Source: an uncultured candidate division WWE3 bacterium
GTDB lineage: Bacteria; Patescibacteriota; WWE3; UBA101185; UBA10185
Direction of reading: 5' to 3'
Assembly (NCBI GenBank): GCA_903879985.1
Contig: CAIRNR010000007.1
Coordinates: 69,382 to 133,381, forward strand
Length of the DNA: 64,000 nucleotides
The stretch's first letter is position 1. Every line of letters begins with the position of its first letter. This document shows, piece after piece, positions 53,807 to 55,380 of this stretch. The translations under genes and the position numbers were made by a program. The notes under the pieces were generated by a model. The model was not told where the DNA came from and did not search any database. It saw only the letters and a list, made by a program, of their open reading frames with translations.

Positions 53807-53827
53807 CAGTAAGGGCAGGTTGTTACA

Positions 53828-53866
53828 GTGGCTATAGGTTGGACAGACAGAGATTTTAAGATTATA
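53828..53866 (+). promoter_or_regulatory. Cassette promoter 1: GGCTATAGGTTGGAC - 18 nt - TATAAT.
   Basis: Seen directly in the sequence. One of three near-identical promoter modules. Confidence 0.6.
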
Positions 53867-53923
53867 ATGGCGGCAATTGCTAGTGAATTCATAATATAAA
53901 TACCAAAATATCTTGGAGGGATA

Positions 53924-54304
53924 ATGGGACCATCAAAATCTTTTAAGAATCTTAGCGCAAAAATACCAGAGCTTTTGCCAACGGATGCTGTGGAAATAAC
54001 GGACACACGGAATCCAAACTATGTAGCCAAATGGCGCGCTTGTGGCATAACTTTCAGTTTGGACGAAACGCGGGACACCCACCACATGAGCCTCGACGTT
54101 TACATCAGCAACAGGGCCAGCCCAGAAGCAATTGACTGGAACAAGGTCGAGGAAATAGTAAAGAAGGTTGCCGATGCTTACACACAAGCATGCAGAGCAA
54201 AAAGGCAAAACGCATCCATGAATTGCTCTGCCTGGGTAAATACGCGAAATAAAAACTGGTTTCCTTGTCTGATGCAAAAGTTGCAGGAACAGCTTACAGA
54301 TTAG
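53924..54304 (+). CDS. Small cytoplasmic protein, paralog A of the tandem cassette family.
   Basis: SD ggaggg 6 nt upstream. 126 aa. About 30% identical to the 54481..54864 product (shared FK.L.SKI...Y.AKW...GI..SL.E...H...LDV.I...PE..DW...AC...NW...L..QL). Confidence 0.6.
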   Translation: MGPSKSFKNLSAKIPELLPTDAVEITDTRNPNYVAKWRACGITFSLDETRDTHHMSLDVYISNRASPEAIDWNKVEEIVKKVADAYTQACRAKRQNASMNCSAWVNTRNKNWFPCLMQKLQEQLTD

Positions 54305-54320
54305 GAATAACCGGCATATG

Positions 54321-54362
54321 AGGATCTATATAGCTAAAAGCTGCATAGGTCCTTATTTTTTT
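54321..54362 (+). terminator. Rho-independent terminator of cassette 1.
   Basis: aggatcta/taggtcct stem (8 bp, one G-U) followed by a T8 tract. Confidence 0.55.
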
Positions 54363-54387
54363 GCGCACAATCGGTAGCGCATTACCA

Positions 54388-54426
54388 ACGCTATAGGTTG
54401 ACCGAATACGCTTTTTACATTATAAT
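54388..54426 (+). promoter_or_regulatory. Cassette promoter 2: CGCTATAGGTTGACC - 17 nt - TATAAT.
   Basis: Near-consensus sigma70 promoter. It shares the GCTATAGGTTG upstream element. Confidence 0.65.
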
Positions 54427-54480
54427 AGCGCCAGTTATCAATGTTTTCTTATTCAATACCATAAAAACCATGGAGGGAAT

Positions 54481-54864
54481 ATGGCCGCGTCAAGGGAATT
54501 TAAAATACTTAGAAGCAAGATCAAATCAATCATGCTGGTTCAAACAGTCGAAATGTTCGACAAGGAAAAAGAATATTACAAGGCAAAATGGCTACATCGG
54601 GGAATCGTGATTTCTTTAAGTGAAATGGTACGTAATCACACGCTTCTATTGGATGTCTGCATCAACCCAAACGTTCCGCTACCAGAAGTCTACGACTGGG
54701 AAGGCATCTCGAAATCACTAAAGATACTTGTGCAAAAGTATCTGGATGCGTGCAAACACATCGGTATGGACCCCGCCGTAGTTTGTAATGGGTTCGTACC
54801 AACAAATAAGGAAAATTGGATTGATGATTTGATTGCCCGTCTTAAAAAGCAACTAAGGCAGTAA
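54481..54864 (+). CDS. Small cytoplasmic protein, paralog B of the tandem cassette family.
   Basis: SD ggaggg. 127 aa. Homologous to the 53924..54304 product. Confidence 0.6.
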   Translation: MAASREFKILRSKIKSIMLVQTVEMFDKEKEYYKAKWLHRGIVISLSEMVRNHTLLLDVCINPNVPLPEVYDWEGISKSLKILVQKYLDACKHIGMDPAVVCNGFVPTNKENWIDDLIARLKKQLRQ

Positions 54865-54887
54865 TCAATAAGTCTATCCGGTAACAA

Positions 54888-54929
54888 AAGACCTATTACG
54901 CCAAAAGCTTAATGGGTCTTATTTTTTTT
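54888..54929 (+). terminator. Rho-independent terminator of cassette 2.
   Basis: aagacct...gggtctt stem followed by a T8 tract. Confidence 0.5.
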
Positions 54930-54938
54930 CAAGAGTAT

Positions 54939-54977
54939 TCGGCTATAGGTTGCCATATTACCGATTTCAAGATATAA
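54939..54977 (+). promoter_or_regulatory. Cassette promoter 3: GGCTATAGGTTGCCA - 17 nt - TATAAT.
   Basis: Same architecture as promoters 1 and 2. Confidence 0.6.
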
Positions 54978-55026
54978 TCCCAGTAACAATAAAACAGTAG
55001 TTAAAACAAATCTAAGGAGGTGAAAA

Positions 55027-55335
55027 ATGTACGACACCGCACGCAAACTGGCAAATGCCCAGCTATCATCCGAAAATATTGAACTTGGAGTTTTTAACAA
55101 ACATCCGGGCAACAGGAACATGATGATCATATCGGTTTCTGTCATTCAACCAGGAAAGGATTCCACAAAGGAGAAGCCCACTTTCGAAACAATCCTTGCA
55201 TCCTTAACCTTTGATATCAATACTTTGGAAATCAAATGGACCAGTAACAGTGCCTTTATTTCAGAAGCCAAAATTGCAACAACTGAGGCAGCGGTTAAAA
55301 GTCTACTGGAGCTTGAATTTCAACGCGTTTTCTAA
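55027..55335 (+). CDS. Small cytoplasmic protein, the third cassette. Not obviously homologous to A or B.
   Basis: SD aaggaggtg. 102 aa. It has its own promoter and terminator. Confidence 0.5.
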   Translation: MYDTARKLANAQLSSENIELGVFNKHPGNRNMMIISVSVIQPGKDSTKEKPTFETILASLTFDINTLEIKWTSNSAFISEAKIATTEAAVKSLLELEFQRVF

Positions 55336-55343
55336 CACCACAA

Positions 55344-55380
55344 AAACCCATTACCAAAAAATAATGGGTTTTTCTTTTTT
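55344..55380. terminator. Bidirectional Rho-independent terminator (cassette 3 on the plus strand, uvrC on the minus strand).
   Basis: A perfect 10-bp stem, aaacccatta/taatgggttt, with T-rich tracts on both sides. Confidence 0.65.

Follow-up and report, generated by a model that had tools for sequence, protein, structure and literature searches.

A short element built around the palindrome CTATAG, referred to here as the box, appears to be conserved directly in front of the promoters of small orphan genes throughout the Patescibacteria, and a locus in an ultra-small, uncultured candidate division WWE3 bacterium provides an example in which genes carrying it seem to have been inserted and duplicated recently. 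The locus lies in a stretch of 64,000 nucleotides (64 kb; contig CAIRNR010000007.1 of assembly GCA_903879985.1, positions 69,382 to 133,381 of the forward strand), termed the window, and consists of three tandem cassettes, numbered 1 to 3, that encode the small proteins P1, P2 and P3. Coordinates of the cassettes and related features are collected in Table 1.

Three tandem cassettes share a promoter box

The locus can firmly be predicted to form three head-to-tail, self-sufficient transcription units, each made up of the box, −35 and −10 hexamers, a leader of about 45 nucleotides, a strong Shine–Dalgarno (SD) sequence, a small open reading frame (ORF) and a terminator. This agrees with an earlier reading made without database searches (the sequence-only reading), which had described three promoter–SD–ORF–terminator units with a near-identical promoter element. 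The 11-mer GCTATAGGTTG, which begins with the box, is present in exactly three copies in the window, all on the (+) strand, at 53831, 54390 and 54942, with start-to-start distances of 559 and 552 bp; by our own arithmetic, about 0.03 copies of an exact 11-mer would be expected by chance (128 kb, counting both strands). With two mismatches allowed, matches to the 11-mer are at background level (20 found, 13.7 expected). The hexamer CTATAG by itself is neither enriched nor avoided in the window (20 observed, 21 expected), and the idea that it is a generally enriched or avoided word was rejected on that count.

The promoters of cassettes 1–3 are the top three sigma-70-type matches within 50–60 kb, each agreeing with the consensus at 11 of 12 hexamer positions across a 17-bp spacer (N17), which falls in the sigma-70 spacing range of 16–18 bp, and all three have a perfect TATAAT. 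The promoter of cassette 1 can be read in two ways, as TTGGAC with a spacer of 18 or as TGGACA with a spacer of 17. The TG of an extended −10 element is not present, TATAAT being preceded by gat, cat and aga in cassettes 1, 2 and 3, respectively. The distances from the −10 hexamer to the ATG are 55, 54 and 48 nucleotides (nt) in the same order. Each cassette has a stable G+C hairpin with a run of 6–8 T just past the stop codon, the arrangement of an intrinsic terminator, with z scores of about −4 relative to shuffled sequences. Transcription of the cassettes, and the use of these promoters and terminators, is predicted from these features. Because its hairpin has A/T on both sides, the terminator of cassette 3 probably serves uvrC as well, ending the convergent uvrC transcript (stop codon at 55405–55407), in which case it would act bidirectionally.

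The upstream regions of the three cassettes resemble one another only weakly apart from the 11-mer and TATAAT. Between cassettes 1 and 2, the leaders share 70% identity over 40 nt, and the terminators of cassettes 2 and 3 share 83% identity over 23 nt; no Rfam family matched in the cassette region, in which the leaders were checked for RNA elements.

Box promoters are not restricted to the three cassettes. Of five perfect TTGnnn-N16-18-TATAAT cores in the window, one is located within a gene and the other four have the box; outside genes, the box accompanies 4 of 4 perfect cores in the window, as against 0 of 3 in 63 kb of unselected relatives. A relaxed pattern, TATAGNTTKNNN-N16-18-TANNNT, finds six matches where 0.56 would be expected, a number reached in none of 100 shuffled windows. 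Two further cassettes with the same layout lie on the opposite strand. The fourth encodes a 94-amino acid (aa) protein with a third-codon-position G+C content (GC3) of 0.42, and is followed by a terminator of −18.7 kcal/mol. The 94-aa protein is unrelated to P1–P3, and its candidacy as a remote paralogue of P1 and P2 was rejected after negative hhalign and BLASTP comparisons. The fifth cassette has the variant box CTTATAGT and a terminator of −21.5 kcal/mol; the same variant is found upstream of a 315-aa orphan gene adjoining uvrC in a relative (locus L133, at about 6376). The promoter of the L21 ribosomal-protein operon in the window is without the box. As a separate observation, the interval from the transglutaminase-like gene to uvrA holds, at 58609–59109 (+) and within a stretch of elevated G+C content (0.44), two small ORFs without Pfam domains (90 and 63 aa, from metagenome gene calls), and CTATAG directly precedes the SD sequence of the first, there without a −35/−10 arrangement.

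The box marks a promoter class across Patescibacteria

A scan for GCTATAGGTTG-N20/21-TATAAT in one genome per GTDB species (596 Gb) returned 105 stretches, about one per 5.7 Gb and roughly the number expected by chance overall, of which 26 belong to Patescibacteria. These comprise 13 from WWE3 and 7 from Saccharibacteria, with the rest distributed as one or two each among Daviesbacteria, Dojkabacteria, Levyibacteriota, Peregrinibacteria and unclassified members, and individual Patescibacteria genomes of about 1 Mb contain 4, 3, 2 and 2 exact 17-position matches. None of the loci returned has three matches as the window does, so the source genome is not among the GTDB representatives that were hit. 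The setting of the matches differs between the two groups: an SD sequence and an ORF follow at 20 of the 26 patescibacterial sites, compared with 23 of 79 in other taxa, whereas sites inside long open frames account for 4 of 26 and 46 of 79, respectively. Ten extra sites with one or two mismatches were found in the patescibacterial loci, nine of them convincing, with CTATAG kept and the same 1-nt offset from TTG, as against four weak sites of this kind in 593 kb of control loci.

The number of mismatches to the box is bimodally distributed, without a surplus of sites that have three or more, which points to a promoter class rather than a graded consensus. In a sequence logo of 36 instances, conservation is confined to the 8-mer, the −35 and the −10 hexamers, apart from a weak tendency to TG ahead of the −10. 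Like the L21 operon promoter, two tRNA promoters at a locus of Daviesbacteria (L021) lack the box; together with the bimodal mismatch counts, this speaks against the motif being the general promoter consensus of these organisms, an outcome that the sequence-only reading had set out as fatal to its proposal.

The box sites are intergenic and are followed by an SD sequence and mostly by small ORFs. Pfam domains are absent from 29 of the 31 ORFs downstream of the box, most of which encode 50–220 aa (median about 120–140 aa), and many begin with an N-terminal hydrophobic segment. A scan of metagenomes gave at least 117 single matches, which carry no taxonomic assignment, and, among the matches listed, 26 further promoter-like cases with a median ORF length of 143 aa. 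The box is kept upstream of paralogues and orthologues that have diverged to 35–45% identity. In one WWE3 genome, tandem paralogues of 82 and 83 aa (35% identical; L102, 125–370 and 3191–3439) each have their own box promoter, a parallel to P1 and P2, and homologous proteins of 374–390 aa from WWE3 and Saccharibacteria (45% identical; L090, 3752–4996, and L101, 307–1510), which carry N-terminal hydrophobic segments, are both preceded by one. In two loci, from WWE3 and a Saccharibacteria genome, a single 8-mer, read as GCTATAGG or CCTATAGC according to direction, has a −35 hexamer on both sides and is shared by a divergent promoter pair (L099, 1183–1190; L101, 307–314), an arrangement made possible by the palindromic core. 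Around the WWE3 box promoters the genes are ordinary chromosomal ones, encoding YidC, Jag, DnaN and a glycoside hydrolase.

Viral contigs yielded 15 matches to the box pattern, about the chance level by our rough estimate, a few of which look like real promoters. On one of these contigs (IMGVR_UViG_3300032240_000831; L116, 11995–12560), two tandem small-gene units have the promoters GCTATAGG/CCTAGAGG-TTGACA-N17-TATAAT and nearly identical leaders (cttacacacactaaggagc).

These comparisons firmly support the view that the box, nCTATAGn before TTGnnn-N17-TATAAT, is a cis-element under selection that marks out a class of promoters across Patescibacteria, mainly in front of small, taxonomically restricted genes. 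The element is likely to be functional rather than a product of chance because all 11 positions were kept while the coding sequences of cassettes 1 and 2 fell to 34% identity, and because the same box marks a class of promoters in many Patescibacteria. The opposite explanation, that the 11-mers are identical as a remnant of a recent triplication or of gene conversion and that the wider matches combine the sigma-70 consensus with chance, is close to refuted. Tandem duplication at the locus is indeed evident, and the matches outside Patescibacteria are near chance level and lie mostly inside genes. A leftover of this kind is, however, hard to reconcile with coding regions that are diverged or no longer recognisable as related beside a box that is 11/11 in all three cassettes, with unrelated genes in many Patescibacteria that have the same box at the same offset, with genomes of about 1 Mb that hold two to four exact matches, and with the 4 of 4 extragenic perfect cores of the window that carry the box when none of the three in relatives does.

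Recognition of the box

With the −10 hexamer at −12 to −7 and a spacer of 17 bp, the box extends from about −43 to −36, immediately next to the −35 hexamer. In Escherichia coli promoters this is the position of the proximal subsite of the UP (upstream) element and of class II activator sites. In the mechanism proposed here, the primary sigma holoenzyme would use the TTGnnn-N17-TATAAT core, and the box would be an added polymerase-proximal recognition element in the position of the proximal UP subsite, read by the C-terminal domain of the alpha subunit or by region 4 of sigma in these bacteria. Such promoters would be strong and independent of context, so that inserted genes would be expressed wherever they land. 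Direct reading of the box by the polymerase is tentatively preferred, at an even chance or somewhat less; it is favoured by the constant consensus core, the fixed 1-nt offset from TTG, the size of only 8 bp without a second half-site and the conservation across candidate phyla.

The likeness to promoters with UP elements is partial. These also have an extra conserved element just upstream of the −35 hexamer, in the same position and with an expected gain in promoter strength. The proximal UP subsite, at about −46 to −38, is A/T-rich, has the consensus AAAAAARNR and is read by the alpha C-terminal domain; the box, unlike it, is a discrete, G/C-flanked CTATAG with no A-tract. No A/T-rich tract was found at −40 to −60, and nothing is conserved upstream of the 8-mer GCTATAGG in the 36-instance logo. 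The box is also confined to one class of genes, outside the L21 and tRNA promoters examined, whereas UP elements were defined at rRNA promoters.

Some points weigh against reading by the polymerase. The box is missing from the L21 and two tRNA promoters, which is where a generic strength element would be expected; these box-less housekeeping promoters and the bimodal mismatch counts fit a dedicated regulator about as well; and the palindromic 6-bp core, together with the box common to divergent promoters, hints at a symmetric DNA-binding dimer. In that case a small DNA-binding protein, conserved in Patescibacteria, would use the box as its operator, acting either as an activator of class II type in contact with sigma region 4 or as a repressor that keeps consensus promoters silent, and the cassettes would be co-regulated with other box genes, for example in a manner dependent on conditions or on host contact. 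This explanation is possible but rather doubtful. It would account for a perfect palindrome from which one box serves two divergent promoters (L099 and L101), for a distinct class of promoters that leaves out the tRNA and L21 promoters examined, and for the biased set of genes, small and nearly all without Pfam domains, many of them starting with a hydrophobic segment. The centre of the box, at about −39.5 beside the −35 hexamer, is a binding position of class II activators and of many repressors, and class II promoters likewise have a short palindromic site beside the −35, which marks out a set of genes and can serve divergent promoters. Class II sites, however, typically measure 14–22 bp, have two half-sites and usually, under activators, accompany a poor −35 hexamer; most regulators bind something longer than an 8-bp site that lacks a second half-site, the flanks of the box are asymmetric (G...G), and an activator would be superfluous next to a near-consensus −35 and −10. 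No candidate regulator gene adjoins the cassettes, and no such protein has been identified.

The sequence-only reading had proposed a dedicated element under the control of one regulator or sigma factor. The shared element is real, and it is lineage-wide rather than specific to the locus or the genome; the sigma-factor part of the proposal loses ground because the perfect TATAAT and TTGnnn core disfavours an alternative sigma, and motifs of alternative or extracytoplasmic function (ECF) sigma factors (for example GGAAC/CGTC) were not found, TATAAT being perfect and TTGnnn present at all sites. The control by a single regulator that it suggested shares the doubtful standing of the operator described above. 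A promoter for a T7-like single-subunit polymerase, suggested by the resemblance of CTATAGG to the end of the T7 promoter, was rejected, since the resemblance extends over only 7 nt and a −35/−10 pair with correct spacing lies downstream of every instance.

A broader proposal, which we regard as unlikely, is that CTATAG is read by a so far unrecognised factor conserved across Patescibacteria, either a transcription factor or one associated with the polymerase, which would turn on or off a regulon whose products are small, fast-evolving and taxonomically restricted, many of these being membrane or secreted proteins. Genes would join this regulon by acquiring or keeping the box and the core, and the three cassettes would be a case of recent recruitment and amplification.

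The cassette proteins are species-restricted orphans

P1 and P2 are paralogues with 34% identity over 125 aa (E = 6e-24), slightly more than the roughly 30% given in the sequence-only reading, whose listed conserved blocks were confirmed. P3 has no detectable similarity to either by BLASTP or by hhalign profile comparison, in line with the earlier description of a third product that differs in sequence and shares the regulatory packaging, and its candidacy as a remote paralogue of P1 and P2 was rejected on these negative results.

That no known family was recognised from the sequence has also held up. None of P1–P3 matched Pfam or NCBIfam above cut-off, PHROGs gave no significant match (best E 0.01), the PADLOC defence models gave none above cut-off (best E 0.032), a joint P1 and P2 profile found nothing among Protein Data Bank (PDB) sequences, and tblastn of P1–P3 against 50,697 phage records was empty. 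In word-indexed searches, P2 and P3 matched nothing but themselves among 5.8 billion clusters, and P1, P2 and P3 each form a single-member cluster present on 20–23 contigs. The joint profile, run against all 1.84 billion representatives, recovered P1, P2 and two spurious repeat proteins, the latter rejected because they are Big_2-like or low-complexity repeat proteins whose matches cover short stretches only. Since this search found only P1 and P2, their family appears to be confined to one species, and P1–P3 can firmly be classed, on the sequences searched, as species-restricted orphans.

P1 is predicted to be soluble, with an isoelectric point of 8.4, and no signal peptide or membrane segment was detected in P1–P3. 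Structure prediction, which the sequence-only reading had suggested as a check, was carried out with AlphaFold2 (AF2). The model of P1 (predicted local distance difference test (pLDDT) 83.9, predicted template modelling score (pTM) 0.80) consists of a helix, a four-stranded meander and two helices, and the single-sequence model of P3 (pLDDT 62) of a helix, four strands and a helix. Structure matches for P1–P3 were generic, with no convincing fold match. The conserved residues H53, D58, C90 and C101 suggest a site, perhaps one for metal. The three are proposed to be soluble, cytoplasmic, fast-evolving small alpha+beta proteins; that they are binding or modulator proteins rather than enzymes is a guess held with low confidence.

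Small, fast-diverging, taxonomically restricted tandem paralogues are also typical of the accessory arrays found in anti-defence, immunity and effector islands. The cassettes differ from such arrays in that their genes are monocistronic, match no defence model, are accompanied by no regulator, toxin or secretion gene, and encode no signal peptide or membrane segment. The analogy with effector, immunity, anti-defence or stress proteins drawn in the sequence-only reading found no backing, either in PADLOC, in phage homologues, in a neighbouring regulator or toxin, or in the generic folds.

Units 1 and 2 are interpreted, from their sequences, as old tandem duplicates, and the identities among the leaders and terminators fit tandem duplication of whole units followed by long divergence. 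Unit 3 may be a third copy that has diverged past recognition, with a common origin by duplication, or it may be the same regulatory shell around another ORF. Arguing against the former, the case for paralogy of P3 consists of the order of secondary-structure elements in a low-confidence model and the similarity of its terminator, and nothing else.

Insertion of the cassettes into a conserved operon

The cassettes are flanked by genes on the (−) strand, with uvrC on one side and, on the other, a 137-aa gene (holin_4_2-like, with four transmembrane segments), secG, murA, mraY, ftsW and murG. In the two closest relatives, whose UvrC proteins are 84% and 74% identical, the gene order is transglutaminase|uvrC-137aa-secG-murA-mraY-ftsW-murG-ftsQ-ftsA-ftsZ without the cassettes, and the gap between uvrC and the 137-aa gene measures 14–26 nt; in loci L130/L131 and L132, the 137-aa gene directly follows uvrC. 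Alignment of the flanks with blastn against L130 places the breakpoints at 53786 and 55408, with 6 nt in the relative corresponding to 1,623 bp in the window. The best named UvrC homologues (55–59% identity) come from genomes of candidate division WWE3 and the ‘Patescibacteria group’, which puts the organism in Patescibacteria and probably within WWE3. The inserted block differs in composition, with a G+C content of 0.402 compared with the window mean of 0.372, and the GC3 of the cassette ORFs is 0.43–0.49, compared with 0.26–0.36 in the flanking core genes. More distant relatives have other, unrelated content at the uvrC/137-aa junction (Table 1), and these differences among WWE3-like relatives mark the junction as a recurrent site of gene gain.

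On this comparison, the block can firmly be interpreted as a lineage-specific insertion into a conserved cell-wall operon and as shaped by duplication. Two considerations count against this history: the choice between insertion and loss is made by parsimony over few relatives, and the inserted block showed neither a donor nor a target-site duplication nor a mobility gene. Eight contigs of the same species from other metagenomes are 99.95–100% identical and carry the same three cassettes, a near-identity that makes them uninformative about variation in copy number. Samples that contain this population include the sources of SRR5754711, ERR4413528 and ERZ18625277, and one contig of the species is 715 kb long. 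The divergence between P1 and P2 far exceeds that of UvrC from the block-less relative (84% identity), which suggests that the array either came already duplicated from an unsampled donor or consists of genes that evolve very fast.

The block might alternatively be mobile or phage-derived cargo, delivered by a phage, a plasmid or another patescibacterial element, with the box as a phage-type early promoter signal rather than one of the host. It resembles phage morons, which are promoter–gene–terminator units of atypical composition that encode small proteins of no known function and lie between genes adjacent in relatives; the own promoter and terminator of each gene, the atypical composition, the antisense position in an operon at a junction variable among relatives, and the several viral contigs with genuine-looking box promoters, including the two tandem cassettes in L116, all accord with such an origin. 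Morons are set in prophages, and here no integrase, repeat borders, mobility genes or phage genes were seen among the flanking genes examined, the neighbours (uvrC, the transglutaminase-like and holin_4_2-like genes, secG and murA) are all syntenic in relatives, and the searches of phage records and PHROGs gave no significant homologue. The viral-contig matches are also near chance, and in WWE3 the same type of promoter is common to ordinary chromosomal genes. Delivery as cargo of this kind is therefore considered improbable. The cassettes are likewise distinct from integron cassettes, which are promoterless, bounded by attC sites and located beside intI: each has its own promoter, and the repeats between units at the locus are the promoter box and the terminators only.

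Table 1. Coordinates of the insertion, of the predicted cassette elements and of the corresponding junctions in relatives
Feature	Sequence	Coordinates	Strand	Details
Insertion with three cassettes	Window	53786–55408	+	1,623 bp; antisense to flanking uvrC and 137-aa/secG/murA
Cassette 1 promoter	Window	53831–53868	+	Box GCTATAGG 53831–53838; −35 TTGGAC 53839–53844 or TGGACA 53840–53845; −10 TATAAT 53863–53868
Cassette 1 SD and ORF	Window	53915–54304	+	SD GGAGGG 53915–53920; P1 53924–54304 (126 aa)
Cassette 1 terminator	Window	54318–54362	+	Hairpin 54318–54356 and T-run; −20.7 kcal/mol; z −4.4
Cassette 2 promoter	Window	54390–54426	+	Box 54390–54397; −35 TTGACC 54398–54403; −10 TATAAT 54421–54426
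Cassette 2 SD and ORF	Window	54472–54864	+	SD GGAGGG 54472–54477; P2 54481–54864 (127 aa)
Cassette 2 intrinsic terminator	Window	54888–54930	+	−15.3 kcal/mol; z −4.2
Cassette 3 promoter	Window	54942–54978	+	Box 54942–54949; −35 TTGCCA 54950–54955; −10 TATAAT 54973–54978
Cassette 3 SD and ORF	Window	55014–55335	+	SD AAGGAGGT 55014–55021; P3 55027–55335 (102 aa)
Cassette 3 terminator	Window	55342–55380	.	Hairpin A/T-flanked on both sides; −12.5 kcal/mol
Fourth cassette	Window	30489–30915	−	Box CCTATAGT 30915–30908; −35 TTGACA 30907–30902; N17; −10 TATAAT 30884–30879; SD AAAGGAG; Pfam-less ORF 30541–30825 (94 aa); terminator 30534–30489
Fifth cassette	Window	29283–29673	−	Variant box CTTATAGT 29673–29666; −35 TTTACA 29665–29660; N17; −10 TATAAT 29642–29637; SD AAAGGAGGG; Pfam-less ORF 29362–29610 (82 aa); hairpin about 29334–29291
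uvrC/murA-operon junction	L133	6342–8390		Pfam-less orphan ORF (315 aa) and NUDIX gene
uvrC/murA-operon junction	L134	6381–7030		650-nt gap, no called gene
uvrC/murA-operon junction	L135	6414–7102		Opposite-strand (antisense) orphan (135 aa)

Other features of the window

In several genes outside the cassettes, an SD sequence is missing and a −10-like box precedes the ATG by 6 nt. These include the 137-aa holin-like gene, with TATCAT-aaatac-ATG at 53773–53790 (−) in the window, conserved as TATAAT-aattat-ATG at 9365–9380 in L130, as well as a GNAT gene with TATAAT-gtagcc-ATG and a 166-aa ORF with TACAAT-aatcct-ATG (window sites 29711–29727 (+) and 31487–31502 (−)). The arrangement suggests leaderless mRNAs, unlike the cassettes with their long leaders and strong SD sequences.

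At position 58237 the window has an extra C in a C-run (CCCC, where three metagenome contigs from this species read CCC), which truncates the transglutaminase-like ORF to 497 aa, compared with 583 aa; the extra base is a genuine frameshift or else an error of assembly. A mechanically called 356-aa ORF at 31610–32680 (−) runs across a tRNA gene at 32389–32460 (−); for this reason its N-terminal part is probably non-coding, and the true start is likely to lie downstream of the tRNA.

Implications

The promoter architecture of Patescibacteria, also called the candidate phyla radiation (CPR), has to our knowledge hardly been studied, and about half of their genes have not been characterised. No description of the CTATAG box was found in literature on the motif or on promoters of Patescibacteria, CPR or Saccharibacteria, a library that is incomplete and leaves a prior description possible; literature matches to the motif string are T7-primer sequences. 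A cross-phylum promoter study from 2025, which includes transcription start site data for Nanosynbacter lyticus, mentions no such element in its passages on CPR/Patescibacteria, and a paper on Saccharibacteria genetics used the tuf and rpsJ promoters. The novelty of the box is provisional.

As the marker of a promoter class, the box would offer a computable handle by which the ‘dark matter’ of orphan genes could be grouped by regulation, and would pose a testable target, the protein that reads CTATAG. It would also supply a ready-made strong promoter design for Saccharibacteria genetic systems. Should the unlikely proposal of an unrecognised factor prove true, the ‘dark matter’ genes of these episymbionts would share a regulatory programme. 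The locus itself illustrates how orphan genes may enter and expand in a reduced genome, in the form of a self-sufficient unit that entered a conserved operon in antisense orientation and was subsequently duplicated.

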